A stretch of DNA of 15,300 nucleotides, taken from positions 1 to 15,300 of the forward strand of contig JBGANO010000015.1 of NCBI GenBank assembly GCA_044222305.1, written 5' to 3'. Each line of letters begins with the position of its first letter. Position 1 is the stretch's first letter. Both the position numbers and the translations under genes were made by a program. Positions 1-15,096 of this stretch are shown here, piece by piece. The stretch comes from Anaerolineales bacterium. GTDB lineage: Bacteria > Chloroflexota > Anaerolineae > Anaerolineales > Villigracilaceae. The notes beneath the pieces are model-generated. The model saw only the letters and a program-made list of their open reading frames with translations. It ran no database searches and was not told where the DNA came from.

Positions 1-696
1 AGAGTTTGCGACGTGTTCGCTAATCCTGTATTACCTTTCTTGGTGAAATCCTAAAATGTTTCCTGATTCTGCACTAGCTGTTCAAATTTTATCCCTCAAA
101 GGCAGAGAACGATTACATACGGTTGGAATGGAAATAAATTTGTTGAAATAACGAATGAGTTCGAACCTCCAGAATATCGCTTTCAGGCAGTTCAAGATGC
201 GGATGCCGCAGTCATTATTGGAAAATACGAAAAGGCGATTCAGTTGTATGATGAAGCAATCACAAGTGGAGAATTGAAATGGTGGTCGCCCGAAAGATTA
301 ATATATGAACAGCACATTGCAAATCCTGTTTATATGTTCAAAGCTACCCCTTCAATAGTTCCTACAGAAAACGCATCCGAATACCCTCGCCTCGCCGCGT
401 ATGCCTACTACCGCATCATGCTCCTCCACTTCGCGCAGGGAAATCAATCAGAAGCCCTCACAACCTACAACACCCTGCTAGAAACTTTTGGCAATGACCC
501 ATACGCTCGTCCCTACGTTGAAATGGCAACCACGTTTTGGGAGGCGTACCAATCCACACATAAAATGTATGATAGTTGCGCGGCGGCGATCCAGTACGCG
601 GTGGAACATCCCGAAATTTTGATTCCGCTGGGGAGCGATTATCATGGGGCGCAGAGTCATATCTATGTGCCTGAGGATGTGTGTCCGTTTAGGTAA
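1..696 (+). pseudogene. Decayed copy A of the tandem lipoprotein family. Only the C-terminal TPR-like part is intact, and the copy is truncated by the window edge.
   Basis: Frame 1 from about nt 67 to TAA 694-696 reads ..IPQRQRTITYGWNGNKFVEITNEFEPPEYRFQAVQDADA.. and is homologous to copies B and C. The last 318 nt are about 95% identical to 1864-2181 by hand count. Every + frame has a stop within nt 1-70: frame 1 TAA 52-54 and TGA 64-66, frame 2 TGA 44-46, frame 3 TAA 21-23. There is no in-frame ATG/GTG/TTG between 67 and TTG 244, so a signal-peptide-bearing protein cannot be read through. Confidence 0.55.
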
Positions 697-990
697 GCGC
701 AAAGCCACCCGCCGACGTTTATGCCAACGATCCCAAGTTGATGCGCGTTACGCAGGAGAATTGTCATGAAAAAACTTACAACCGTTTTCCTCACCATAAT
801 TTTTCTCCTCTCCGCCTGCGGACAACCTGCGCCCATCCCTGTCATTGAAAATGCTACAGCAACTTCGTCCCCACTCCCAACAAACACATCTACTCCAACA
901 GACACACTGACCGCTTCCATTACGCCTCTGCCCACCATCCCCACCTTCACGCCGACATTCGATGCTTCGACGATTGTTACAGTCACGCCC
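379..990 (+). repeat. Conserved junction module 1 of the lipoprotein array: last 318 nt of copy A, the 69-nt spacer, and about 225 nt of the 5' end of copy B.
   Basis: Hand alignment against 1864-2475. Spacers 697-765 and 2182-2250 differ at one position. The 3' blocks show about 17 mismatches in 318 nt. The 5' blocks are identical for 60 nt and then moderately diverged. Confidence 0.8.
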
Positions 991-2181
991 GCGTTAGCCA
1001 GAACATGTCCACAAATCAACTTAGAAACAAAACTAGACACAACCCCTTTTTATGAACATCTCAAGAAGTATTCCGACGATCAAATATTCAAAGTAATTCT
1101 TGAATATCTAAATGCTGGCGGCTCTTGGGGGACACTTACTTCTGAGTTTTCAGACAGCGACCAATATGGTCGGGTCTTGGGTCAAATTAATGAGTTAGAT
1201 TTGACTAATGATGGCATAAAAGATTTTCTGGTAGAAATACCGCCCGGGTTTGGAATCTATTCCTGTAAAAATGGGGTTTATGAGTTATCTCTAAATTTGA
1301 ATGGGGTTGTGGGTGAACCTGCCTCCATAACTAAAACAAAGGACATGAATCTAAATGGCATACCTGAGATTGTGGCAGGCATTACGTTTTGTTCAGGACA
1401 TTGCTTTGACATTTCGATTTTTGAATGGGATGGTCAAGAATTTCAAAACTTGCTGGGTGAATGGCAAACAATCACGTCTTCAGAAGAGAAAATCGTGGAT
1501 GTAAACAATGATGGGCTTTTTGAGTTGGTGATTGAAGGACCATTTCCAAGCATGGGAAGTTATATAGATTACATTCCTTTGCGCGGACAAAAAGATGTAT
1601 ATTTCTGGAATGGAAAAAACTATATTGTGTCTCGTTCTGAATTTTCCCCACCCGTATACCGTTTTCAGGCAATTCAGGATGGGGATGCCGAAACTTTAGA
1701 CGGCAACTTTGATAAGGCTTTGATATTCTACGAGGAAACAATCTTTAGCAAAAATCTACAATGGTGGTCAATGGATCGCAGAGAGCATGAAGTCAAACTA
1801 TATCTGGACATTTGGGATCCAGCAAAACCTACTCCGCCACCTGAACCGCCCGAAGATAAAACCGAATACCCTCGCCTCGCCGCGTATGCCTACTACCGCA
1901 TCATGCTCCTCCACTTCGCGCAAGGAAATGAATCAGAAGCCCTCACAACCTACAACACCCTGCTAGAAACATTTGGCAACGACCCATATACTCATCCCTA
2001 CGTTGAAATGGCAACCGCGTTTTGGGAGGTGTACCAATCCACACATAAAATGTACGATGGTTGCGCGGCGGCGATCCAATACGCGGTGGAACATCCCGAA
2101 ATTTTGATTCCGCTGGGGAGCGATTATCACGGGGCGCAGAGTCATACCTATGTGCCAGAGGATGTATGTCCGTTTCGGTAA
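766..2181 (+). CDS. Secreted lipoprotein, copy B: signal peptide with lipobox, Pro/Thr-rich linker, three FG-GAP/VCBS-like DxNxDG repeats, and a TPR-like helical C-terminal module.
   Basis: 471-aa ORF with AGGAG 7 nt upstream of the ATG. N-terminus MKKLTTVFLTIIFLLSAC has lipobox LSAC with Cys18. PT-rich linker (TSSPLPTNTSTPTDT..PTIPTFTPT). Repeats DLTNDGIKDFLV, DMNLNGIPEIV and DVNNDGLFELV, each followed by W(D/N)G. C-terminal EYPRLAAYAYYRIMLLHFAQGNESEAL.. helical repeats. Confidence 0.85.
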   Translation: MKKLTTVFLTIIFLLSACGQPAPIPVIENATATSSPLPTNTSTPTDTLTASITPLPTIPTFTPTFDASTIVTVTPALARTCPQINLETKLDTTPFYEHLKKYSDDQIFKVILEYLNAGGSWGTLTSEFSDSDQYGRVLGQINELDLTNDGIKDFLVEIPPGFGIYSCKNGVYELSLNLNGVVGEPASITKTKDMNLNGIPEIVAGITFCSGHCFDISIFEWDGQEFQNLLGEWQTITSSEEKIVDVNNDGLFELVIEGPFPSMGSYIDYIPLRGQKDVYFWNGKNYIVSRSEFSPPVYRFQAIQDGDAETLDGNFDKALIFYEETIFSKNLQWWSMDRREHEVKLYLDIWDPAKPTPPPEPPEDKTEYPRLAAYAYYRIMLLHFAQGNESEALTTYNTLLETFGNDPYTHPYVEMATAFWEVYQSTHKMYDGCAAAIQYAVEHPEILIPLGSDYHGAQSHTYVPEDVCPFR

Positions 2182-2475
2182 GTGCAAAGCCACCCGCCGA
2201 CGTTTATGCCAACGATCCCAAGTTGATGCGCGTTACGCAGGAGAATTGTCATGAAAAAACTTACAACCGTTTTCCTCACCATAATTTTTCTCCTCTCCGC
2301 CTGCGGACAATCTTCACCCGTCCCTGTCATTGAAAATGCTACGTCAACCCCGTCCCCGCTCGCAGCAAACACATCTTCGCCAACCCACACACCGACCGCG
2401 TCCATCACGCTCCTGCCCACCATCCCCACTTTCACACCGACATTCGATGTTTCGACGATTGTCACGGTCACGCCT
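1864..2475 (+). repeat. Conserved junction module 2 of the lipoprotein array: 3' end of copy B, spacer, and 5' end of copy C.
   Basis: Same alignment as for 379-990. The period between modules is 1485 bp. Confidence 0.8.
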
Positions 2476-3696
2476 GCGCCGAAGGCGGAGTGTCCGAAAC
2501 CAATTGGTTATCCTGAGAAGGATTTCAATTTAGTTGAATTCAAAGAGAACGGCAATTATCAAAATGGACAAGAGGCAGTTTTATCCTTTCTTAATAAGTA
2601 TGGGGCTGAAGTTTTTGTAGGCTATGAAAGAAATGCGAGAGCAAGTGCAGAAGAAGAAATAGCTTTTCGAGATCTCACCAATGATGGAGCGCCCGAATTA
2701 GCCGTGAGACTGGCTGTTTCTATTGCGTCGACCTCTTTCGAAATCTTTGGTTGTAGAGATGGTGAATATCAAGTGTTACTATCCATTCCTTCGAATAGTT
2801 TGGGCTATGCTCCAATTCTTTTCTCAATTGAAGATAATAATAAAAACGGAATCCCTGAACTCACCATATTAGCAGGTTACTTATCTCAAGGAGGACATTC
2901 TTATGTAGCCTACGAATGGGATGGACAAAAATTCGCAAACATACTTTCTCCTTTTTATCAACATGACCCCGATTCGAAATATTTATGGGCGGAGGCAACT
3001 GGAGAAATTCATTATGATGATATTGACAACGATTTTCTTAATGAGTTGATTTTAGATAGCGGGGTTCCCGTTTGGGAAACTTATTGGTCAGGGCTGCCAT
3101 GGCGAAATAAAAGAACTTATTACAAATGGAATGGTCAAAACTATGCTCCTTATAAAATTGAGTTCGCTCAACCTGAATTTAGATTTCAAGCGGTACAAGA
3201 CGGGGATTTAGCTTTTTCTCAACAAGAATATGACAAGGCATTAAGCTTGTATCAAGATGGAATATTTAGTGACGGGCTAAAGGGTTATTCGCCAGAAATT
3301 CGTGACAACCTTCGAGCACAATGGGATGCTGGATACGGAACCAATCCAACTCCAACGCCATATCCTATTGCAGTAGATGAATATCCAAAATTAGCCGCGT
3401 ATGCTTACTACCGCATCATGCTCCTCCATTTCGCGCAGGGAAATGAATCAGAAGCAACCGCAACTTACAAAACCCTGCAAGCAACATTTGGCAAAGACTC
3501 ATACGCTCATCCCTACGTCGAATTGGCAACCGCGTTTTGGGAGGCATATCAATCCACACATAAAATGTACGATGGCTGTGCGGTGGCGATCCAGTACGCA
3601 GTGGAACATCCCGAAATTTTGATTCCGCTGGGGAGCGATTATCATGGGGCGCAGAGTCATATCTATGTGCCTGAGGATGTGTGTCCGTTTAGGTAA
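2251..3696 (+). CDS. Secreted lipoprotein, copy C, with the same architecture as copy B but a diverged core.
   Basis: 481-aa ORF. The first 60 nt are identical to copy B, and the upstream 69-nt spacer (same AGGAG) differs from it at one position. Repeats DLTNDGAPELAV, DNNKNGIPELT and DIDNDFLNELIL. The C-terminal 106 codons are highly similar to copies A and B. Confidence 0.85.
   Translation: MKKLTTVFLTIIFLLSACGQSSPVPVIENATSTPSPLAANTSSPTHTPTASITLLPTIPTFTPTFDVSTIVTVTPAPKAECPKPIGYPEKDFNLVEFKENGNYQNGQEAVLSFLNKYGAEVFVGYERNARASAEEEIAFRDLTNDGAPELAVRLAVSIASTSFEIFGCRDGEYQVLLSIPSNSLGYAPILFSIEDNNKNGIPELTILAGYLSQGGHSYVAYEWDGQKFANILSPFYQHDPDSKYLWAEATGEIHYDDIDNDFLNELILDSGVPVWETYWSGLPWRNKRTYYKWNGQNYAPYKIEFAQPEFRFQAVQDGDLAFSQQEYDKALSLYQDGIFSDGLKGYSPEIRDNLRAQWDAGYGTNPTPTPYPIAVDEYPKLAAYAYYRIMLLHFAQGNESEATATYKTLQATFGKDSYAHPYVELATAFWEAYQSTHKMYDGCAVAIQYAVEHPEILIPLGSDYHGAQSHIYVPEDVCPFR
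3379..3696 (+). repeat. Terminal half-module: the conserved 3' 318 nt of copy C, with no following spacer or 5' module.
   Basis: The last ~97 nt (from GTGGAACATCCCG to the stop) are identical to copy A, whereas copy B has 6 differences there by hand count. Downstream sequence is unrelated to the 69-nt spacer. Confidence 0.75.
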
Positions 3697-3714
3697 CGCC
3701 AAAATACTGCATAA

Positions 3715-3730
3715 AGATATAATCATATCT
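3715..3730. promoter_or_regulatory. Candidate operator/-10 region: a 16-nt palindrome AGATAT-AATC-ATATCT overlapping a TATAAT hexamer (3718-3723).
   Basis: Perfect 6-bp inverted arms sit 21 nt upstream of the antitoxin start. AbrB/MazE-type antitoxins commonly autoregulate at palindromes overlapping their promoter. No good -35 was seen. Confidence 0.3.
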
Positions 3731-3750
3731 ACCGATGTTCAACAGGAGAC

Positions 3751-3963
3751 ATGATGAAGCCAATCACTGTTTCGCCTAGATTTCAAATAGTTCTTCCAAA
3801 GAAAGTGCGAGAACAGATGCGGATTAGGGCGGGGCAGAAATTGCACGTTATCGCTTATGACAATATCCTCACTTTAATTCCTGTCCGCCCGATACAAGAA
3901 GCGCGCGGCTCGCTTAAAAACATCAAGACGGACGTTGTGCGCGACGATGTGGACCGTGTTTGA
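3751..3963 (+). CDS. AbrB/SpoVT/MazE-type (VapB-like) antitoxin or DNA-binding protein.
   Basis: 70-aa ORF. The N-terminus KPITVSPRFQIVLPKKVREQMRIRAGQKLHV matches the swapped-hairpin AbrB/SpoVT motif (..vtIPkeiReklgi..Gd.l.). AGGAG lies at 3744-3748, so the second ATG at 3754 has the better spacing. Confidence 0.8.
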   Translation: MMKPITVSPRFQIVLPKKVREQMRIRAGQKLHVIAYDNILTLIPVRPIQEARGSLKNIKTDVVRDDVDRV

Positions 3964-4012
3964 CACTTTCCATCATCTTTCTTCTTTCATCCTTCATCAT
4001 TCATCCTTCATA
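3964..4012 (+). repeat. Degenerate heptamer array x7 (consensus NTTCATC), ending 1 nt before the ATG at 4014.
   Basis: cactttc catcatc tttcttc tttcatc cttcatc attcatc cttcata. It contains TTCATCCTTCAT twice (3986-3997 and 4000-4011). Confidence 0.7.
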
Positions 4013-4013
4013 A

Positions 4014-5636
4014 ATGATCTACGATTTCATCATCATCGGCTCAGGCTTCGGGGGAAGTGTCTCCGCCATGCGCCTCACCGAAAAAGGCTATTCCGTTCTC
4101 GTTCTTGAAAAAGGCAAACGCTACGACGATAAAGATTTTGCCAGGACCAACTGGCAATTCTGGAAATATCTCTGGCTCCCCGCCATCCGTGCGCATGGAA
4201 TTTTGCAGGTCAGCATTCTCAAAGGCGCGATGATCCTTCACGGGGCGGGCGTCGGCGGCGGCAGTTTGGGATACGCCAACGTGCTCGAAGTTCCAAGCGA
4301 CGAAACGTTTGGGACTCCCGCGTGGAATCAAACTGTGAAATGGGGTGATGCGTTGCGTCCGCACTACGAGACAGTGCGGCGGATGCTCGGCGTGACGCGC
4401 AATCCCAAACTCTGGAAAGCGGATGAAGTCCTCAAACAAATTGCGGATGAACGCGGCATGGGGCACACTTTCCGCGCGACGGATGTCGGTTCATTCTTCG
4501 GGGAGGCTGGGGTCACCGTCCCTGATCCATTTTTCGGCGGCGACGGACCCGCCCGCGCAGGGTGCATCCATTGCGGCGGGTGCATGGTGGGATGTCGTCA
4601 CAACGCGAAGAACACACTCCCGAAGAATTATTTGTATTTCGCGGAGAAGAATGGGGCAAAAGTAATTTCAGAATCAGAAGTGACCGACGTTCGACCTTTG
4701 ACCTTTGACAATGAAGAGTCGAAAGTCGAAGGTCAAAGGTCGGATGCTCGTTACAAAATTACGTATCAATCATCAACATCGCTGTTCAAACGCAAACACA
4801 CGGTCTATGCAAAGAATGTAATTTTCTCCGCTGGCGTGATGGGGACGATGAAATTGTTGCTCAACTTGCGCGATGTGAAAAAGTCATTGCCGAATCTTTC
4901 GCCGCGACTTGGCGACATGGTGCGCACAAACTCCGAAGCATTGCTCGGCTCGATCGCCCGCGGATCGGATGTGGACTTTTCACAAGGCGTTTCGATCTCA
5001 TCCATTATGAACGCGGACGAAGTGACGCGCGTCGAACCTGTCCGCTACCCAAATGGATCGTCGCTGATGCGTTTTCTCGGCGCTCCGCTCGTCTCCGATG
5101 TGACGAATGTCCCCGCCCGCATCGTCCGCTCTCTCACGTGGATTCTTCGCCATCCGATAGACTACCTCCGCGCGATGATCTTCCCCAACTGGGCGCACAA
5201 CGTGACCATCCTGCTCGTCATGCAACACGTAGACAATCACATGAAATTCCGCATCGGACGCAGTCCGCTCACGCTCTTCCGTCGCGGCTTGGTCGCGCAA
5301 CCCGACGCGGATCACCAAATCCACGCGCGGGTGGATGCGGGTCACGATGTGACACGTGAGTTTGCAAAGCGCATCAACGGCGCGGCGCTCGGCTCCATCA
5401 CCGAGAACGCGTTCAACCTCCCCACCACTGCCCACATCCTCGGTGGCGCGCCGATGGGACAAAACGCCGAAGAAGGTGTTGTGGACGAAAATTTCCAAAT
5501 CCACAACTACGAAGGTATGTACATCATAGACGGCTCGATCATGCCCGCGAATCCTGGCGTCAACCCGTCGCTGACCATCACCGCGCTGGCAGAATATGCG
5601 ATGAGTAAGGTGGGGAGTAAACAGGGAAACATGTAG
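4014..5636 (+). CDS. GMC-family FAD-dependent oxidoreductase (cholesterol-oxidase-like).
   Basis: 540-aa ORF. N-terminal Rossmann motif DFIIIGSGFGGSVSAMRLTEKGYSVLVLEKG. Cys-rich CIHCGGCMVGC segment typical of this subgroup. C-terminal GMC signature GMYIIDGSIMPANPGVNPSLTITALAE. Confidence 0.88.
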   Translation: MIYDFIIIGSGFGGSVSAMRLTEKGYSVLVLEKGKRYDDKDFARTNWQFWKYLWLPAIRAHGILQVSILKGAMILHGAGVGGGSLGYANVLEVPSDETFGTPAWNQTVKWGDALRPHYETVRRMLGVTRNPKLWKADEVLKQIADERGMGHTFRATDVGSFFGEAGVTVPDPFFGGDGPARAGCIHCGGCMVGCRHNAKNTLPKNYLYFAEKNGAKVISESEVTDVRPLTFDNEESKVEGQRSDARYKITYQSSTSLFKRKHTVYAKNVIFSAGVMGTMKLLLNLRDVKKSLPNLSPRLGDMVRTNSEALLGSIARGSDVDFSQGVSISSIMNADEVTRVEPVRYPNGSSLMRFLGAPLVSDVTNVPARIVRSLTWILRHPIDYLRAMIFPNWAHNVTILLVMQHVDNHMKFRIGRSPLTLFRRGLVAQPDADHQIHARVDAGHDVTREFAKRINGAALGSITENAFNLPTTAHILGGAPMGQNAEEGVVDENFQIHNYEGMYIIDGSIMPANPGVNPSLTITALAEYAMSKVGSKQGNM

Positions 5637-5742
5637 ACAGGTAAACAGGGAAACACGTAGACACGGAAACACGTAACTCGTAACTTGTATCTCGTATCTT
5701 TCCTCTTTCATCTTTCATAATTCATCCTTCATCCTTTACAAT
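5617..5742 (+). repeat. Continuous short-period array: 7 octamers (G[TG]A[AG]ACAN, 5617-5672) followed by 10 drifting heptamers (5673-5742).
   Basis: gtaaacag ggaaacat gtagacag gtaaacag ggaaacac gtagacac ggaaacac | gtaactc gtaactt gtatctc gtatctt tcctctt tcatctt tcataat tcatcct tcatcct ttacaat. It starts inside the GMC CDS (stop TAG 5634-5636) and ends 7 nt before the ATG at 5750. Confidence 0.8.
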
Positions 5743-5749
5743 AAACACC

Positions 5750-7060
5750 ATGCCAACCTTTTCCCCCTCCCTCTCCTTCGCCCAAGAACTCGACTCCCTC
5801 GACCCCCTCGCTTCCTACCGCGAGCAATTCGTCATCACCGACCCCGACCTGATCTACCTCGACGGCAACTCGCTGGGGCGTATGCCCAAGTCTGCGGCAG
5901 AACGCGCCAAGCAGGTGATAGACGAAGAGTGGGGGCACGACCTAATCCGCGGCTGGAACAAAGGCTGGTGGGAAGCCCCGACTCGCGTGGGCGACAAGAT
6001 CGGAAAATTAATCGGCGCAGAAGCGGGTCAAGTGATCGTTACAGACACGGTTTCAAGCAACCTCTTCAAACTCGCCACCGCCGCGCTCACACACCAACCA
6101 AACAAAAAACGAATCATCACCGATACATTTAATTTCCCCTCCGATCTGTACATCCTCCAGGGGATTCAACACCTCTTATCAGACTCAATACGCAGTACGC
6201 AGCACGCAGTACACAACACGCAATACGAAGTAATCCGCATCACCGCAAGCGATAACGACATTACACCGAATATCACCGAACTTGAATCTGTAATCAATGA
6301 AAACACGGCTTTGGTTACTTTATCGCATGTTGTTTTTAAAAGCGGATATATCTATGACATGCAAAGAATCACAGAACTCGCGCACGCCAAAGGCGCATTG
6401 GTTCTTTGGGATTTGAGTCACTCCGTCGGCGCGGTTCCCATCGAACTCGACAACTGCAACGCCGACCTCGCCATCGGATGCACTTACAAATATCTCAACG
6501 GCGGTCCGGGCGCGCCCGCCTTCCTCTATGTCAACAAAAAGATTCAAGAAAAACTTACCTCGCCCATCTGGGGTTGGTGGGGACAAAAACATCCGTTCGA
6601 CTTCGGTCTCGACTACGAACCCGCCGCAGGCGCGCGAAGATTTTTAGCAGGCACACAACCGATGATCTCCATGCTCACAATGGAAACCGCCCTCGAACCG
6701 ACTCTGCAAGCAGGCATGGACTTCATCCGCGCCAAATCCATCTTGATGACGGACTACGCTTCTTTCCTGACGGATAGCTGGCTCGCCCCTCTCGGCTTTT
6801 CCCTCGGCTCCCCGCGTGACTCTGCCATGCGCGGCTCCCACATCTCCATCCGCCACACGGACGGCTACCGAATCAACCGCGCCCTCATCGAAGAGATGGG
6901 CGTCATCCCCGACTTCCGCGAACCCGACAACATCCGCTTAGGATTTTCATCGCTCTACACATCCTTTGTTGAAATTCGGGAAGGCTTCGATCGCATCAAG
7001 CGCGTGATGGATGAAAAGCGATACGAGAAATATCCGAAGCAAAGGTTGACCGTCACATAA
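5750..7060 (+). CDS. kynU: Kynureninase (PLP-dependent, EC 3.7.1.3).
   Basis: 436-aa ORF. Family motifs: YLDGNSLG, VTDTVSSNLFKL, FPSDLY, WDLSHSVGAVP, the PLP-lysine motif GCTYKYLNGGPGAP, RFLAGTQP, MRGSHISI and PDFREPDNIRLGF. The matches are to Pseudomonas-type kynureninase as recalled from memory. Confidence 0.9.
   Translation: MPTFSPSLSFAQELDSLDPLASYREQFVITDPDLIYLDGNSLGRMPKSAAERAKQVIDEEWGHDLIRGWNKGWWEAPTRVGDKIGKLIGAEAGQVIVTDTVSSNLFKLATAALTHQPNKKRIITDTFNFPSDLYILQGIQHLLSDSIRSTQHAVHNTQYEVIRITASDNDITPNITELESVINENTALVTLSHVVFKSGYIYDMQRITELAHAKGALVLWDLSHSVGAVPIELDNCNADLAIGCTYKYLNGGPGAPAFLYVNKKIQEKLTSPIWGWWGQKHPFDFGLDYEPAAGARRFLAGTQPMISMLTMETALEPTLQAGMDFIRAKSILMTDYASFLTDSWLAPLGFSLGSPRDSAMRGSHISIRHTDGYRINRALIEEMGVIPDFREPDNIRLGFSSLYTSFVEIREGFDRIKRVMDEKRYEKYPKQRLTVT
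6190..6231 (+). repeat. In-frame degenerate heptamer array x6 inside kynU.
   Basis: acgcagt acgcagc acgcagt acacaac acgcaat acgaagt = 42 nt = 14 codons, within the segment encoding SDSIRSTQHAVHNTQYEV. Confidence 0.75.
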
Positions 7061-7130
7061 ACAGACGATTGACCATAGACCACAGACACTGCCTCTCATT
7101 CATCGTCTAACGTCCATCGTCAATGGTCGT
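7061..7130 (+). repeat. Drifting heptamer array x10 in the spacer after kynU.
   Basis: acagacg attgacc atagacc acagaca ctgcctc tcattca tcgtcta acgtcca tcgtcaa tggtcgt. It begins immediately after stop TAA 7058-7060. Confidence 0.55.
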
Positions 7131-7924: not shown

Positions 7925-8329
7925 TTATTTCCGCGCCAACACAATCACGGAGGCGCCATCGGCAGAAGTGATCGTCAGTGTATCGCCATTCAGCGAAAAG
8001 GTTGCGGCGCCAGCAAACACACTGAGCACGGCAGATTCTTGCACGCTTGCATTGCCGATGCAAGCCATCTTCGTTGAGATAAATTGGCTAAAGACGATGT
8101 TGCTTTCCTCCAACGTGTACCCACCATTGAATTGATTGCAACCCACATTGCCGCTGATCTTTTCAGCGTCAAACATTATGGATGTTTCAATATTCGGATC
8201 GGCGGGAGTTGGGTTGGATGCTGAACCGTACGAAACAAGTCCCCATTCCCCCGCGAGGGATGCGGACGCGGCAGGGGCGCAAGCCGCAAGCGCGAACACG
8301 GCAACGATTAACAAATAGAATTTTTTCAT
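7925..8329 (-). CDS. META-domain (HslJ-like) lipoprotein.
   Basis: The ORF runs to 8341, but GAGGAG sits 4 nt upstream of the ATG at 8329. MKKFYLLIVAVFALAAC has lipobox LAAC. The META motif GNVGCNQFNGGY and the ..LTITSADG..VIVLARK tail are present. Confidence 0.85.
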   Translation of the reverse strand: MKKFYLLIVAVFALAACAPAASASLAGEWGLVSYGSASNPTPADPNIETSIMFDAEKISGNVGCNQFNGGYTLEESNIVFSQFISTKMACIGNASVQESAVLSVFAGAATFSLNGDTLTITSADGASVIVLARK

Positions 8330-8417
8330 GATACTCCTCATATAATTGATTTCATTTTATCTGACGAAATTTTCTCACGAATGTTCCCTATTCGAGTTAA
8401 CCCAAATCACCGAACAA

Positions 8418-11390: not shown

Positions 11391-11420
11391 CCACAGATTA
11401 CACGGATTCTCACGGATTTT
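11391..11420 (+). repeat. Degenerate 10-nt tandem repeat x3.
   Basis: ccacagatta cacggattct cacggatttt, 10 nt after the permease stop. Confidence 0.6.
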
Positions 11421-11452
11421 TATTTAAAGACCGTCTGGTGATCGAATCAAAA

Positions 11453-11483
11453 AGCCAACCCTCTAAGTCGGGTTGGCTTTTCT
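11453..11483. terminator. Bidirectional rho-independent terminator between convergent genes.
   Basis: 9-bp stem AGCCAACCC (11453-11461) / GGGTTGGCT (11470-11478) with an 8-nt loop. It is flanked by AAAAA upstream and TTTTCT downstream, so there is a U-tract on both strands. Confidence 0.75.
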
Positions 11484-11560
11484 GTGTAAATCGGTGAAAC
11501 TTGTGCTGACGGTTCGTCTTTCGCTCACCGTGCCGAAGTATCCGTGGCTAAAAGCTCGTA

Positions 11561-11971
11561 TTATTTCTTCGCAAGCACAACGACCGAACTTCCATCCGCT
11601 GATGTAATCGTCAACGCGTTGCCGTTCAATTCATAGGTGGCGGTTTCGACGAATACGCCGAACAAGACCTGCTCCTGTTCACCTGCGGGACCTTCACAGA
11701 ACATCAACGTTGAGAAGAGAGCGCCGAACGTGATCGTGCCGTCGCCTGTTTTATAATCGCCGCCGAAGCCGTTACAGCCAACATTTCCATTCACCTGACC
11801 GTCATCGCCGAAGATGATGGAGGTCTCCACATCGGGCGCGGCAGGCGTCGGGTTGGTTGCGTCGCCATAGGATTCGAGAGTCCACTCCCCAACGATCGAG
11901 GGGGACGCGGCGGGGGCACAGGCAGCAAGGGCAATTGCCATCATAGAAAGTAACACAAAAATCTTCTTCAT
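11561..11971 (-). CDS. META-domain (HslJ-like) lipoprotein, paralog of 7925-8329.
   Basis: 136 aa with AGGAG 6 nt upstream. MKKIFVLLSMMAIALAAC has a lipobox. The motif GNVGCNGFGGDY and the tail LTITSADGSSVVVLAKK are present. Roughly half the residues are identical to the other META protein by eye. Confidence 0.85.
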   Translation of the reverse strand: MKKIFVLLSMMAIALAACAPAASPSIVGEWTLESYGDATNPTPAAPDVETSIIFGDDGQVNGNVGCNGFGGDYKTGDGTITFGALFSTLMFCEGPAGEQEQVLFGVFVETATYELNGNALTITSADGSSVVVLAKK

Positions 11972-12022
11972 CTTTATCTCCTAAAAATATTTTACTGTCC
12001 ACATTCCACACATTTTGAATAT

Positions 12023-12090
12023 GTCACCCTGAGCGATAGCGAAGGGTCTCTACGGCAACGTCAGGGATTCTTCGCTCCGCTCAGAATGAC
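12023..12090. repeat. Palindromic REP/MITE-like element of the GTCAYYSYGAGSG family.
   Basis: Left arm GTCACCCTGAGCGATAGCGAAG (12023-) pairs with right arm CTTCGCTCCGCTCAGAATGAC (12070-12090) at about 18 of 22 positions with one gap. Confidence 0.65.
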
Positions 12091-12187
12091 ATTGCGTACG
12101 GTAAGTTACTGAATGGACGAATTTCCTACCGAAAAGTTCCCGTAAATATTTTGTGTAGAGAGCGCTCTCTAGCGCACTTTTTCAATT

Positions 12188-12296
12188 GACCTCTTGCGAA
12201 AGTCTCTTCGCCACAGAGAGCACAGAGAAAAAAGAGATTTTCTCAAAGGTCTCTGTGGACTCTGTGGCTAAGCAAAACGCACTTATGCAAGAGATC
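12188..12296. repeat. Nested palindromic element of the GCCACAGAG type.
   Basis: Inner arms GCCACAGAGAGCACAGAG (12210-12227) / CTCTGTGGACTCTGTGGC (12251-12268) pair at 16 of 18 positions. Outer arms are GACCTCTTGCGAAAG (12188-12202) / CTTATGCAAGAGATC (12282-12296). Confidence 0.6.
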
Positions 12297-12309
12297 TAAT
12301 AGATTTATC

Positions 12310-13131
12310 CTACGGCCTCAATCGGTTGAAATTTCTCCGCGCAAACAATGTGATCCCCGCCGCGGCAGAGACGTTCAACGACTCCACTTTTTGATTAATG
12401 GGGATACTAACCTTCAAGTTCGCGGCGTTTTCGATCTCAAGCGAGCATCCCTCTTTTTCATTGCCGAAGACAATCAGCAATCGCTCAGGGATGGATGCGA
12501 TCTCATCCACCGTTTTTTCTGCGTCCGCAGATGTGACCAGCAAAGTTTGTTTGTTTTGTGCGCAATAGTCAATCAATTGACTTGTTGTCGCAGTCATTAC
12601 GGGCAAAGTAAACAGATAGCCCCTGCTCGCGCGGATCAACCTGCGGTCGTAAATATCGAGCGGATCCATGTTCAGCAGGATCATCCCGCCCACGCCCAAC
12701 GCCAACGACGTGCGGATGATGTTGCCGATGTTGCCCGAAATGCTCACATCTTCCAGCACAACCACATCCTTAGTGATGCTCTTCAATTTTTCCAATCCGA
12801 TGGGTTTGGGAGCCTCGGCGATGGCGAAGATACGCGAGAGTTTGTCGTTCTCGAACAGTTTCTTTGTCGTCCGCTTTGCCACCTCATGGATGGTCGCGCC
12901 TGCTGTGAGTTTCTTTCGCAGGGTTTCCGAAATTACATCGTCGCCCGAAAAATAAACGGATTCAATTTCAATCCCTGCCTCGAGGGCTTGCAGGATATTT
13001 TCCTCGTCGTCAATGATGATCTGGTTGAGTTCGCGCCGTCCCTCGCGCGTGAGCAGTTTGCGGATGGGTCCCGCGAGGGGATGATTAAGGGAATCAACGA
13101 GGAAGGGGTTGTTTTCGGAGGGTTCGTTCAT
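12310..13131 (-). CDS. SPOUT (SpoU/TrmH) RNA 2'-O-methyltransferase that most resembles thiostrepton/nosiheptide-resistance 23S rRNA A1067 methyltransferases (Tsr/NHR).
   Basis: 273 aa. SPOUT motifs: VVVLEDVSISGNIGNIIRTSLALG, YDRRLIRASRGYLFTLPV, LLIVFGNEKEG, SIPINQKVESLNVSAAAGI. These closely parallel Streptomyces azureus Tsr as I recall it ([70 protein letters not shown]). The size is similar and there is an N-terminal L30e-like domain. SPOUT membership is firm. The specific substrate is an inference. Confidence 0.8.
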   Translation of the reverse strand: MNEPSENNPFLVDSLNHPLAGPIRKLLTREGRRELNQIIIDDEENILQALEAGIEIESVYFSGDDVISETLRKKLTAGATIHEVAKRTTKKLFENDKLSRIFAIAEAPKPIGLEKLKSITKDVVVLEDVSISGNIGNIIRTSLALGVGGMILLNMDPLDIYDRRLIRASRGYLFTLPVMTATTSQLIDYCAQNKQTLLVTSADAEKTVDEIASIPERLLIVFGNEKEGCSLEIENAANLKVSIPINQKVESLNVSAAAGITLFARRNFNRLRP

Positions 13132-13173
13132 GGTTGAGATAATATGCGGTTACAGAGAGAGTGTCAAGAAGAA

Positions 13174-13320
13174 ATCCCGAAGGGATGGTAGGTTTATAGA
13201 ATTACGTCAAGCCAAAACACAATCCCGAAGGGATGACATGATTCCCCATTACGTTATGACACCCCTTCGGGGTTGATAAAAATCATGTCGGAATCTATAA
13301 TCCTTTCACTCCTTCGGAGT
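13174..13320. repeat. Nested palindrome of four ~30-nt units, each carrying a CCCGAAGGG or CCYYTTCGGRG mini-hairpin (orientation + + - -).
   Basis: ATCCCGAAGGGAT at 13174-13186 and 13222-13234, ACCCCTTCGGGGT at 13261-13273, ACTCCTTCGGAGT at 13308-13320. The flanks of unit 1 (..GGTAGGTTTATAGAAT) pair with those of unit 4 (..ATCTATAATCCTTTCAC), and the flanks of unit 2 (GGGATGACAT) pair with those of unit 3 (ATGACACCCC). Confidence 0.65.
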
Positions 13321-13328
13321 TTCAATTC

Positions 13329-13994
13329 ATGAACCTGATTTTTCAAGACAAGCACATTCTGGTTATAAACAAGCCCGCAGGGATTCCCGTCCTGCCTGAC
13401 GGGTGGGAGAAGGATTCGCTGTATTTGGTGAAGATGCTGGAAGAGGAATTCGGGAACCCTTCGACAGGCTCAGGGCAACGGCTGTGGGTTGTTCACCGCT
13501 TGGACAAAATCACCAGCGGAGTGATGGTCTTTGCGCGGGAGGCGGAGAGTCACCGCGCGTTGAATATGCAGTTCGAGAATCACGAGGTGGAGAAGGTCTA
13601 TCACGCGATCGTGGAGGGGAATCCAAGGTGGGAGGAGAAAACGGCGAAGCATCCGTTGCGAGTCAATGTGGGGCATAAACATCGGACGGTGGTGGACGAC
13701 AGGAACGGGAAATCGTCGGAGACGCGATTCAGGCTGAGGAAACTGTATCAATCGTCGGCGTTGGTCGAAGCGATGCCGACGACGGGAAGAACGCATCAGG
13801 TGCGAGTCCATGCAAAAGCGTTGGGGCATCCGCTTGTGGGGGATGTCCTGTATGGCGCGGCGGAGTCGAAAGTCATTGGACGCCCCGCACTGCATGCGTG
13901 GTCGTTGACGTTCACGCATCCAATTACTGATGAAAGACTCACATTCAAAGCGGAATACCCGCAGGATTTTGCCACCGCGTTGAAACTTTTGTAA
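13329..13994 (+). CDS. RluA-family pseudouridine synthase (no S4 domain).
   Basis: 221 aa. Motifs ILVINKPAG, HRLDKITSGVMVFA (catalytic Asp), KVYHAIVEG, TGRTHQVRVHAKALGHPLVGDVLYG and LHAW. Confidence 0.9.
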   Translation: MNLIFQDKHILVINKPAGIPVLPDGWEKDSLYLVKMLEEEFGNPSTGSGQRLWVVHRLDKITSGVMVFAREAESHRALNMQFENHEVEKVYHAIVEGNPRWEEKTAKHPLRVNVGHKHRTVVDDRNGKSSETRFRLRKLYQSSALVEAMPTTGRTHQVRVHAKALGHPLVGDVLYGAAESKVIGRPALHAWSLTFTHPITDERLTFKAEYPQDFATALKLL

Positions 13995-14032
13995 GTTGAA
14001 GGCGTTCGGTTTCTTGTGGTATCCTTCGCCCG

Positions 14033-14887
14033 ATGATTCCAAACCCTTCGACTTCGCTCAGGACAGGCTTGCCCCGCCTCGATATTTTGCCCATCGAAAG
14101 TTTGATCTTGCATGAAGACCACGACGCGCAGAGGAGCGCGCCGCTGATCGAGAAGTTGCGCGGCGCGGGCGTGTTGCGAAACCCTCCGATCGTGATGCCG
14201 CTGACAGATGGCACGGAACGATACATGGTGCTGGACGGCGCGAACCGAGTCACTTCGTTGCATGAGTTGGAATTTCCACACCTCGTGGCGCAGGTGGTGG
14301 AAGCGGACGATCAAAATGTAAATTTGCAAACGTGGAACCACGTTGTCTGGGGGATGAGCGCGAAGTCGTTGATGAGCGAGCTTCGCAAACTGAAAGGCGT
14401 GGATGTTGTAAAAGTCGACCCGCATAAATCGGTGGACGCGCCGAAGTACGCGCCTGTCAACGCGCGCCTGCCCGACGGGAAATTGTATTTGCTCCTGGAA
14501 GACCCCACCGACCTTGCGAATCATATCGCCACCCTTCATGCGATTGTGAACGCGTACAAAACCTCCGCGTCGCTCGACCGCACCAGCCAGACGTTGATCG
14601 AACCGTTCCGCGAAGTACACAAAGACCTGACCGCGCTGATCATCTTTCCGCGGTTTAAGATTCGCACTTTGCTCAAACTTGCGGGGCGAAAGATCGTCCT
14701 GCCTACCGGCATCACGCGCTTCACGGTTTCGCCGCGCACGTTGCATTTGAATTATCCACTGCACGAGTTATCGAGCGGCAAGCCGATTGAATACAAAAGA
14801 GAATATCTCAAGAAGTGGGTGGACGAGCGCGTGATGAAGAAGGGCGTTCGTTTGTATGCCGAAGCGACGTTTTTGTTTGATGAGTGA
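14033..14887 (+). CDS. ParB/Sulfiredoxin-fold protein that resembles SbnI/SerK-type free L-serine kinases.
   Basis: 284 aa. IESLILHED..PPIVMPLTDGTERYMVLDGANRVTSLHELEFPHLVAQVV..LQTWNHVV parallels S. aureus SbnI as I recall it (IDLHE..HPILVTAMQHGRYMVIDGVHRYTSLKALG..ISTWQHKV). C-terminal LPTGITRFTVSPRTLHLNYPLHEL parallels VPAGVTRFNISGRCLNLQVPLALL. The start is uncertain: codons 4-12 are repeat-derived, and an in-frame TTG at 14069 has AGGA 5 nt upstream. Confidence 0.65.
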   Translation: MIPNPSTSLRTGLPRLDILPIESLILHEDHDAQRSAPLIEKLRGAGVLRNPPIVMPLTDGTERYMVLDGANRVTSLHELEFPHLVAQVVEADDQNVNLQTWNHVVWGMSAKSLMSELRKLKGVDVVKVDPHKSVDAPKYAPVNARLPDGKLYLLLEDPTDLANHIATLHAIVNAYKTSASLDRTSQTLIEPFREVHKDLTALIIFPRFKIRTLLKLAGRKIVLPTGITRFTVSPRTLHLNYPLHELSSGKPIEYKREYLKKWVDERVMKKGVRLYAEATFLFDE

Positions 14888-14893
14888 AATGCA

Positions 14894-14960
14894 AGAGACT
14901 AGAGATTAGAGAATAGAGAATAGTGGACTAGAGAATTAGAGAACTAGAGAATTAGAGGAT
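14894..14960 (+). repeat. Short-period array: 5 heptamers (AGAGANT) then 4 octamers (TAGAGAAY).
   Basis: agagact agagatt agagaat agagaat agtggac | tagagaat tagagaac tagagaat tagaggat. It starts 7 nt after stop TGA 14885-14887. Confidence 0.75.
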
Positions 14961-15096
14961 TTGTCGCCACGCATCGTCCCGACACCGCACCTGTGGTGGG
15001 TGCAAGTGCGCTCATTGGGAGTGAGCGCAGAGAACTTTGAGTTTTTGTCCTTGAACATCTATGACGACTCTCTTTGACCATTGAACTGTTCAACTC

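Follow-up and report, generated by a model that had tools for sequence, protein, structure and literature searches.

The window examined in this study is a 15,300-nt stretch of DNA from an Anaerolineales bacterium (family Villigracilaceae; contig JBGANO010000015.1). Its left part, positions 70–3696, holds a tandem array of genes for predicted lipoproteins composed of the 3' fragment of one gene, referred to as A, and two intact genes, B and C. The features of the array are given below, with the labels L001 to L080 denoting the related loci and contigs that were compared with the window.

1..69, + strand: tail of an upstream open reading frame (ORF; ending in …FLVKS, stop at 52–54) joined to the 3' part of A; L002 and L072–L080 match only from position 70
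70..696, + strand: gene A 3' fragment, with the end of a predicted A-type FG-GAP core, a helical mid region and the C-terminal domain; family hidden Markov model (HMM) match at 70–693
377..993, + strand: junction module J1, made up of the A 3' block (~320 nt), the spacer and the B 5' block (~228 nt, covering the predicted signal peptide, lipobox and Pro/Thr stalk); BLAST against 1862–2478
697..765, + strand: spacer 1, with a GGAG ribosome-binding site 7 nt ahead of the ATG; direct reading
766..2181, + strand: gene B, 471 aa, with an LSAC lipobox (Cys18), Pro/Thr stalk, predicted B-type FG-GAP core, helical mid region and TPR-like C-terminal domain; ORF listing, HMM, AlphaFold2 (AF2) and Foldseek
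1862..2478, + strand: junction module J2, made up of the B 3' block, the spacer and the C 5' block; BLAST; sits straight after the A core in haplotype H2
2182..2250, + strand: spacer 2, which differs from spacer 1 only at 2183
2251..3696, + strand: gene C, 481 aa, with the architecture of B and a C-type core; ORF listing and core comparison
2482..3520, + strand: segment of gene C exchanged for a D-type cassette in haplotype H2; identity of L072 to the window
3394..3703, + strand: third copy of the 3' homology block, at the end of gene C; BLAST

The stops at 696, 2181 and 3696 and the starts at 766 and 2251 give periods of 1485 and 1515 nt, and the single repeat family found in the array has the same spacing. 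Both the ORF listing and the repeat finding agree with the layout given in a preliminary description of this DNA. The description had also proposed that the conserved unit is a junction and not a gene, and this is borne out by a module (3' block, 69-nt spacer and 5' block) in which 377–993 matches 1862–2478 over 617 nt with 92.9% identity. The longest exact repeat shared by the modules is 127 nt. The third 3' block, at 3394–3703, is 91% identical to 394–703 and 90% identical to 1879–2181. Direct counts reproduced the three values first obtained by hand: the two spacers are identical at 68 of 69 positions, the single mismatch being at window position 2183; B and C have no difference over their first 60 coding nt; and the last 318 nt of A and B have 17 mismatches, compared with 33 for A and C and 37 for B and C. 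In L002 and L003, spacers 1 and 2 are identical. The final ~97 nt had been described as identical between A and C with six differences in B. The near-identity stands, but A and C have one mismatch (their exact shared run is 96 nt), and B is five mismatches from A and six from C.

Identity is not uniform along the genes. In a codon-aligned sliding comparison of B and C, it is 72–100% over the first ~210 nt and 82–97% over the last ~290 nt but drops to 33–60% in the core. The cores of A, B and C are 41–46% identical at the nucleotide level. The scaffold motifs noted earlier in these diverged cores are present; however, the identity of B and C, judged by eye as one third, was measured as 27% at the amino-acid level.

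B, C and the intact form of A are all complete ORFs that have an ATG and a GGAG site of their own. Antisense ORFs at 663–1040 (− strand, 125 aa) and 2148–2471 (− strand, 107 aa) overlap the spacer and the part of each module that encodes the Pro/Thr stalk. The pair is duplicated because the junction module is duplicated, and these ORFs are probably not genes. The spacer was also considered as an RNA element or attC-like site. With a folding z-score of −0.08, no inverted repeats and no Rfam match, this candidate was discarded.

While three paralogs had been described in the window, only B and C are intact and A is represented by its 3' fragment alone, with unrelated sequence at 1–69. The frame of A is interrupted by stops at 52–54 and 64–66, and the family HMM match is limited to 70–693 (model columns 268–475). 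L002 and L072–L080, which are assemblies from the same study and population, match the window from position 70 on and carry an intact A gene there. The intact gene, at 6225–7643 of L002, encodes 472 aa and lies behind an Ion_trans_2 (IonT) gene. Thus, A in the window is a 3' fragment that has been joined to the tail of another ORF. The 69/70 joint is present only in the window contig and L001, both of which end within 132 nt of it, and a comparison of window 1–69 (L001 1–132) with gene A and all fetched loci gave no match. The joint marks either a haplotype with a deletion or rearrangement or an artefact of the contig end, and the two are indistinguishable here.

Haplotypes of the array

A lookup of the intact A protein identified 22 contigs from the same European Nucleotide Archive (ENA) study. 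Haplotype H1 has the order A-B-C, as in L002 and the window. Haplotype H2 has the order IonT, A*, D (465 aa), MazE and GMC, where the last two are the MazE-like ORF and the GMC-family oxidoreductase gene to the right of the array; it is found in L072 (and 11 similar contigs), L073, L074 and L079. A* is the A gene of L002 over gene nt 1–1160, and all 16 differences beyond that point have the B-block state. Of 44 sites that are diagnostic for J1 or J2, 42 have the J2 state in H2 and the other two are private single-nucleotide polymorphisms (SNPs) of the window. Since A* switches to the B-block/J2 state, exactly one 1485-bp unit of H1 is absent from H2, and the crossover falls where the 3' homology block begins.

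H2 also differs from the window in its last gene. L072 is 99–100% identical to the window up to 2481, 2182–2481 included, but only 45–55% identical over 2482–3220. Identity then rises to 74–77% over 3221–3520 and to 97–100% over 3521–4420. In H2, the C core is therefore swapped for a D core, and both breakpoints are inside conserved parts. The D core is a further type with a best amino-acid identity of 55–62% to the cores compared. The copy-number or cassette variation that the preliminary description expected at this locus is present among the metagenome assemblies, in the form of one missing 1485-bp unit and a C core replaced by D. In one sample (L076 5495–6892), the D-type gene of H2 is broken into two ORFs, of 345 and 92 aa, and is suggestive of a pseudogene.

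As these haplotypes were read from metagenome assemblies, the repeats and gene orders might be chimeras of strains or paralogs that were created through the shared modules. Contigs L003, L004, L075, L077, L078 and L080 do end in or beside modules, L004 has a B-state 3' block ahead of gene B, and the odd joint of the window (1–69; L001 1–132) is shorter than the assembler k-mer. Modules of this kind disrupt short-read assemblies and can produce or conceal haplotypes. The longest exact repeat of 127 nt, however, is shorter than the k=141 given in the contig names, the A-B and B-C junctions recur in the assemblies of at least three to four different samples, and H2 is found in at least five samples in addition to the 11 similar contigs. 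Tandem arrays of the same pattern also occur in unrelated metagenome-assembled genomes (MAGs) produced with other assemblers (L029, L034). For these reasons, assembly artefacts are an unlikely source of the haplotypes, and an explanation of the whole array on that basis is given little weight.

L008 is the closest relative (93.5% amino-acid identity in GMC) and carries only one family gene, with an upstream flank that matches that of A and a downstream flank that matches that of C. The ends of this gene are 87–91% identical to those in the window, like the flanking genes (87%). Its core is of another type and has no BLAST match. A stretch of ~73 nt upstream of A (L002 6077–6149; L008 9853–9925) aligns to L008 in either orientation with 90% identity, so it is palindromic; it is located within the conserved 5' flank of the locus.

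Divergence of ends and cores

Synonymous differences were calculated as Nei-Gojobori pS with the intact A gene taken from L002. Within the array, pS is 0.74–0.78 in the cores, which is saturated, compared to 0.17–0.32 in the 3' block and 0.24–0.39 in the 5' block. Between genomes, the median pS is 0.72 for the 3' block and 0.69 for the 5' block. The ends are therefore near synonymous saturation between genomes, and no family-wide constraint acts on their synonymous sites.

For a wider comparison, 66 related loci from GTDB species representatives were used, and 42 full-length genes were compared on a common HMM frame. The A core is nearest to L016, L018 and L037 (68–71% nucleotide identity), the B core to L006 and L007 (69–73%), and the C core to L031, L033 and L034 (53–57%); all remaining core pairs are 41–49% identical. 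In contrast, the 3' blocks of A, B and C are mutually 85–93% identical. The 3' block of C is 85–86% identical to those of A and B but only 59–66% identical to those of its core relatives L031, L033 and L034. Grouping in the identity matrices follows the genome or array for the ends and the type, across genomes, for the cores. The same discordance is repeated in the arrays of L029 (three copies) and L034. It is absent in non-adjacent paralogs, both in L017 and L031, which are 20 kb apart on one contig (3' block 64%, 5' block 55%), and in L007 and L037, which belong to one bin.

Mosaic tracts were assessed by permutation of polymorphic sites in six tests. Support was obtained for a B=C tract over the first 60 nt (P=0.0007), an A=C tract over the last 93 nt (P=0.012) and an A=B tract of 61 nt (P=0.02). 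The patchy identity that had been attributed to gene-conversion tracts thus has permutation support, and after Bonferroni correction the B=C tract remains significant. SNPs between assemblies all fall within modules and all match the paralog; because they are too few and L004 could be a product of assembly, they were not used as evidence for ongoing conversion.

Because the end and core histories are discordant, the pS of the ends is low, the spacer is near-identical and mosaic tracts are present, the sequences argue that adjacent paralogs are under segmental concerted evolution. This agrees with the earlier proposal that the ends are homogenised by recombination. It might be argued that the ends are similar due to purifying selection on the stalk and C-terminal domain only, with no recombination among the copies. 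Among 99 homologs from many genomes, the C-terminal domain does have a median amino-acid identity of 78% and the stalk motif TASITPLPTIPTFTPTFDVSTIVTVTP is nearly invariant. Selection alone is nevertheless highly improbable given the end pS of 0.17–0.39 in the array versus medians of 0.69–0.72 between genomes, the 68 of 69 identical positions in a non-coding spacer, the disagreement of end and core histories, and the strain haplotypes with crossovers inside the blocks.

Core identities among the 99 homologs are bimodal, with modes at 25–30% and 50–70%, and at least 23 types can be distinguished. Within a type, the ratio of nonsynonymous to synonymous substitutions (dN/dS) of the core is 0.13–0.23. 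The cores, as judged from these values, are discrete ancient types under purifying selection and not fast-diversifying sequences. Of the two fates that the preliminary description gave the cores, exchange as cassettes is seen in the replacement of the C core by a D core, but diversification, if taken to be rapid, is at odds with the dN/dS. The same values bear on a scenario of recent tandem duplication, in which cores diverged very fast under positive selection as the ends remained unchanged. While such a scenario would suit the tandem genes and the extreme contrast between core and ends, it is very unlikely since each core is closer to cores of more distant genomes than to those of its own array, synonymous sites are saturated between types, dN/dS within a type is low, and core identities fall into discrete classes with no continuum.

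The cores also differ in the GC content of third codon positions (GC3). In the window, GC3 is 0.58–0.74 in neighbouring genes and 0.49–0.59 at the ends of B and C, but only 0.28–0.35 in the cores, with low-GC3 blocks at 1021–1860 and 2506–3375. Averaged over 40 family genes (L006–L047 range), GC3 is 0.48–0.67 in HMM columns 1–90, 0.30–0.36 in columns 91–360 and 0.45–0.77 in columns 361–475, a family-wide contrast of 0.35 in the core versus 0.58. In 41 of 42 genes, the core has a lower GC3 than either end, and the steps fall at the borders of the homology modules. The drop does not follow amino-acid conservation, as conserved core columns have a GC3 of 0.37 and the fairly conserved columns 301–345 have a GC3 of 0.30–0.33. 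Core GC3 tracks the GC content of the host (r=0.73, slope 1.2) with a constant offset of about −0.24. From this tracking, the cores are long-term residents with a lower GC3 equilibrium and not recent imports. A possible reason for the GC3 deficit is that cores of different types are unable to recombine with each other and would therefore miss GC-biased gene conversion.

Predicted architecture of the lipoprotein family

The array genes appear from their sequences to be paralogs of an uncharacterised family of extracytoplasmic lipoproteins that is restricted to Anaerolineales. More than 787 homolog matches were obtained, all unnamed or annotated as 'hypothetical' and all from Anaerolineales/Chloroflexota metagenome bins. 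A search with the C-terminal domain gave 640 clusters at 50% identity, in which the domain is always C-terminal and the proteins are mostly 450–540 aa in length. B and C have no significant match to a named family in Pfam, NCBIfam, PADLOC or the PDB sequences. Below threshold, they match only FG-GAP_3, TPR and lipoprotein-signal models. A literature search on the lipoprotein family found nothing.

A family-wide alignment of 99 homologs presents constant ends on either side of a variable middle. At the amino terminus, the lipobox Cys18 is invariant within the pattern [LVI][ASTVI][GAS]C, and both B and C carry MKKLTTVFLTIIFLLSAC as their N-terminal signal peptide and lipobox. NCBIfam matches to lipoprotein signal regions are weak. 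In the AF2 model, a helix over residues 3–15 is followed by disorder. B and C are thus likely lipidated and located outside the cytoplasm, possibly at the surface. The nearly invariant stalk motif has the alignment form TASITPLPTIPTFTPTFDVSTIVTVTPA..CP. A Pro/Thr linker motif, T.T..TPLPTIPTFTPTFD..TI.T.TPA, is at least 90% conserved (B residues 47–76, window 904–993). This degree of conservation suggests a specific role for the linker, such as a modification or docking site, rather than that of a simple spacer. At the other end of the protein, the last ~105 aa are highly conserved and include two invariant cysteines.

The variable block consists of ~215 aa with three FG-GAP repeats followed by a helical linker. 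AF2 modeled B with a pLDDT (predicted local distance difference test) of 85. The model is composed of a signal helix, a disordered stalk, three short helices, ~16 β-strands and paired helices to the carboxy terminus. Since a fold search with the whole protein identified only generic propeller and helical-repeat proteins (nucleoporins, KICSTOR), the core domain was modeled alone (pLDDT = 88). Integrin α propellers were the top Foldseek matches of the core model (probability 1.0, E=6e-5, query-normalised TM-score 0.44), and the alignments span ~180–200 columns of targets that are 450–900 residues long. A profile of the core matched Vibrio cholerae Bap1 (6MLT, deposited as 'hemolysin-related protein') with E=3.8e-6 and, weakly, ITFG2 (E=0.07). 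Pfam FG-GAP_3 (PF13517) has a gathering cut-off of 26.9, which B (18.5 bits) does not reach and C does not match at all; precomputed PF13517 matches are listed for roughly one third of the homologs.

In integrins, the D-x-[DN]-x-[DN]-G-x-x-[DE] loops of FG-GAP repeats bind Ca2+. Three motifs of the form D-x-[DNT]-x-[DN]-G-x-x-[DE] are present in the family, which in B are DLTNDGIKD, DMNLNGIPE and DVNNDGLFE. Their key Asp and Glu columns show no or almost no variation. The cores of B and C may therefore be expected to bind Ca2+. Because only about three repeats and ~16 strands fit into ~215 aa, the core is not a closed seven- or eight-bladed propeller, and the models indicate an FG-GAP-type partial propeller of three repeats. 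The preliminary description of a surface-exposed, Ca-binding, propeller-like family is upheld with respect to fold and motifs by Foldseek, the Bap1 profile, the three loops and Cys18, with the qualification that the propeller is partial and not closed.

Compared to other FG-GAP/VCBS proteins, such as integrin α, V. cholerae Bap1, the fungal lectin PVL and ITFG2, the core is alike in profile, fold and the three Ca-loop motifs. It differs in having only about three repeats with no closed seven- or eight-bladed propeller (query-normalised TM-score 0.40–0.45) and in being fused to a family-specific, TPR-like C-terminal domain. In the AF2 model, the paired helices extend over B residues 299–447. 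Foldseek matches of this region to TPR proteins are weak. B and C do not reach the thresholds of the Pfam TPR models, and TPR_14 is passed by the A fragment only (24.9 vs 23.5).

An identity as an XAC2610/PliI-type immunity protein or lysozyme inhibitor was also considered. The NCBIfam NF047539 match has E=0.095 and 13 bits versus a cut-off of 35, and the PliI fold (4pj2) was matched only at rank 41 with E=0.016. As a result, this lead was dropped.

Interpretation and genomic neighbourhood

The explanation that best fits these observations is that of a tandem array of paralogous lipoprotein genes in which the ends are homogenised and ancient core types are swapped by recombination. A probability of roughly 0.8 is assigned to it. 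Ordinary homologous recombination, by gene conversion and unequal crossing-over, would keep the 5' block, 3' block and spacer of neighbouring genes alike. The same homology blocks would serve as crossover sites at which whole units are lost or gained, and cores would be exchanged through recombination with DNA of other strains. As units and cores recombine at the homology blocks, strains differ in the number and identity of the types that they display. The recombination is presumed to depend on general RecA-type machinery rather than a dedicated system; no recombinase or reverse transcriptase gene was found in the window or in 8–10 kb flanks. The three genes are likely co-transcribed. Searches of the array for terminators, inverted repeats, short tandem repeats and Rfam elements were negative, and a promoter/terminator scan gave no result above chance. 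From the conservation pattern and the roles of FG-GAP domains elsewhere, the core may set binding specificity while the constant stalk and C-terminal domain dock or present it.

Several points weigh against this explanation. All of the data are metagenome assemblies whose contigs often end at repeats, and L004 (1.6 kb, with its B-state block ahead of B) could have arisen by assembly through the 127-nt exact repeat. The direction of events, whether deletion or insertion, conversion or import, is not readable from the data. Bonferroni correction over the six tests leaves the B=C tract alone as significant, and the conservation of the ends is partly due to a family-wide constraint on the protein in the C-terminal domain and stalk. 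With regard to the proteins, B and C remain under the gathering thresholds of Pfam FG-GAP_3 and TPR, and lipidation, Ca binding, surface exposure and a ligand are predictions from sequence and model.

The constant ends around a variable cassette, the centre of which is exchanged by recombination at the ends, resemble Neisseria pilE/pilS, Borrelia vlsE and Anaplasma msp2 as well as shufflon targets. Together with the promoterless fragment of gene A in the window, this layout might indicate programmed variation by dedicated machinery, through silent cassettes, a site-specific recombinase or invertase, or a diversity-generating retroelement (DGR). In the pilE/pilS, vlsE and msp2 systems, however, a single expression site is accompanied by silent, truncated cassettes and switching within a clone is frequent, whereas B, C and intact A are complete ORFs with their own ATG and GGAG, the types are ancient and constrained, and the variation is seen between strains. 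Searches of the window and the array found neither a recombinase nor a reverse transcriptase, and no repeats of the inverted, template or short tandem kind; there is no PADLOC match, and most genomes have a single copy. The array thus does not belong with programmed cassette systems such as pilS, vls, msp2 or DGRs, and the chance that dedicated machinery is at work is very small.

The closest known analogue of a homogenised array with exchanged cores is found in Helicobacter pylori. Its genes babA, babB and babC have extensive 5' and 3' homology with a divergent middle that is thought to hold the binding specificity, RecA-dependent intragenomic recombination and gene conversion produce chimeras, and the placement of paralogs at the loci varies between strains (PMC5483490). 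The array shares with bab its homologous ends, divergent middle, gene conversion, chimeras and strain variation: the ends are more alike than the middle, the end and middle phylogenies are discordant, and recombinant alleles with breakpoints in the blocks are present in the metagenome assemblies. The two differ in several respects. The bab loci are dispersed, whereas the copies in the array are adjacent and homogenisation is seen only between neighbours. The bab genes have CT-repeat phase variation, none of which was found in the array, and encode Hop outer-membrane β-barrel adhesins of a pathogen rather than a predicted FG-GAP/TPR-like lipoprotein of environmental Chloroflexota. With at least 23, the core types are also many more than those of bab. 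The phenomenon is therefore of a known kind, while the family and its behaviour in the population are new descriptions. Polymorphic receptors for cell-surface recognition such as Myxococcus TraA, in which a constant anchor carries a variable head of discrete population specificity types, provide a further lead; this likeness is one of description.

To our knowledge, the Anaerolineales are abundant, mostly uncultured and filamentous, and almost nothing is known of their surface biology. The locus defines a large family of 640 clusters at 50% identity that is found at a set genomic position and combines a constant stalk and C-terminal domain with at least 23 discrete types of head. Because the pattern of strain variation is typical of recognition molecules, the locus is a concrete candidate for phage, neighbour or substrate recognition in the phylum. 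A much broader reading, which is speculative and considered rather doubtful, is that of a polymorphic surface-recognition locus of filamentous Anaerolineales, acting in kin or partner recognition or as a ligand or phage receptor. Dozens of core types would be held in long-lived balanced polymorphism at one syntenic site, the ends would act as recombination handles by which types are shuffled in and among strains, and the GC3 deficit would stem from missed GC-biased gene conversion. If true, the locus would offer a natural experiment on the maintenance of bacterial GC content; the GC3 step, if due to suppressed recombination, bears on the debate over GC-biased gene conversion in bacteria.

Two features to the right of the array place it within a conserved neighbourhood.

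3754..3963, + strand: MazE/AbrB-type ORF of 69 aa, right flank of the locus; Pfam PF04014, E=1.9e-7
4014..5636, + strand: GMC-family oxidoreductase, syntenic anchor; Pfam and synteny

In about 40 Anaerolineales loci, a family gene is immediately upstream of the GMC oxidoreductase gene, often with a MazE-like ORF between them, and kynureninase, SIMPL and ABC transporter genes are often downstream of it. Most loci have one copy of the family gene and a few have two or three. The MazE/AbrB-type ORF has no adjacent toxin gene and is in the same place in L008, L016, L051, L061 and L072. A heptamer tandem repeat, TCCTTCA x6, at 3969–4011 ends 2 nt ahead of the GMC oxidoreductase start codon.

L043, with flanks that are ~91% identical, has one 5'-truncated copy in the interval from IonT to GMC, and L051 and L054 have only 3' fragments of the family gene. 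In many Anaerolineales bins, such 5'-truncated remnants are all that is left of the family gene; they are found mid-contig, often beside GMC (L043 9989–10771, L051 9992–10502, L054 9950–10315), with further ones near position 10001 of L066, L067, L070 and L071. They comprise the 3' block, in some cases joined by part of the core, and suggest repeated deletions with end points inside or close to the 3' block. Between the B-type gene and GMC, L006 has 3.6 kb of unrelated genes at 11420–15000 (cupin, carboxymuconolactone decarboxylase-like, alcohol dehydrogenase, SDR), and the sequence just past the stop of the B-type gene resembles the inter-copy spacer of the window.

Between the window and L072, which are otherwise 99–100% identical, the GMC and kynureninase genes at 4421–7120 contain short patches of 76–92% identity. 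L072 also has a 1.2-kb insertion, with genes for a DSPc phosphatase and a HicB-like protein, between kynureninase and SIMPL. From these patches and the insertion, recombination among strains is frequent around the locus. Further downstream, two META-domain lipoprotein paralogs (7925–8341 and 11561–11971, both − strand) flank the ABC transporter genes of the window, the second of which is the only one present in L008.

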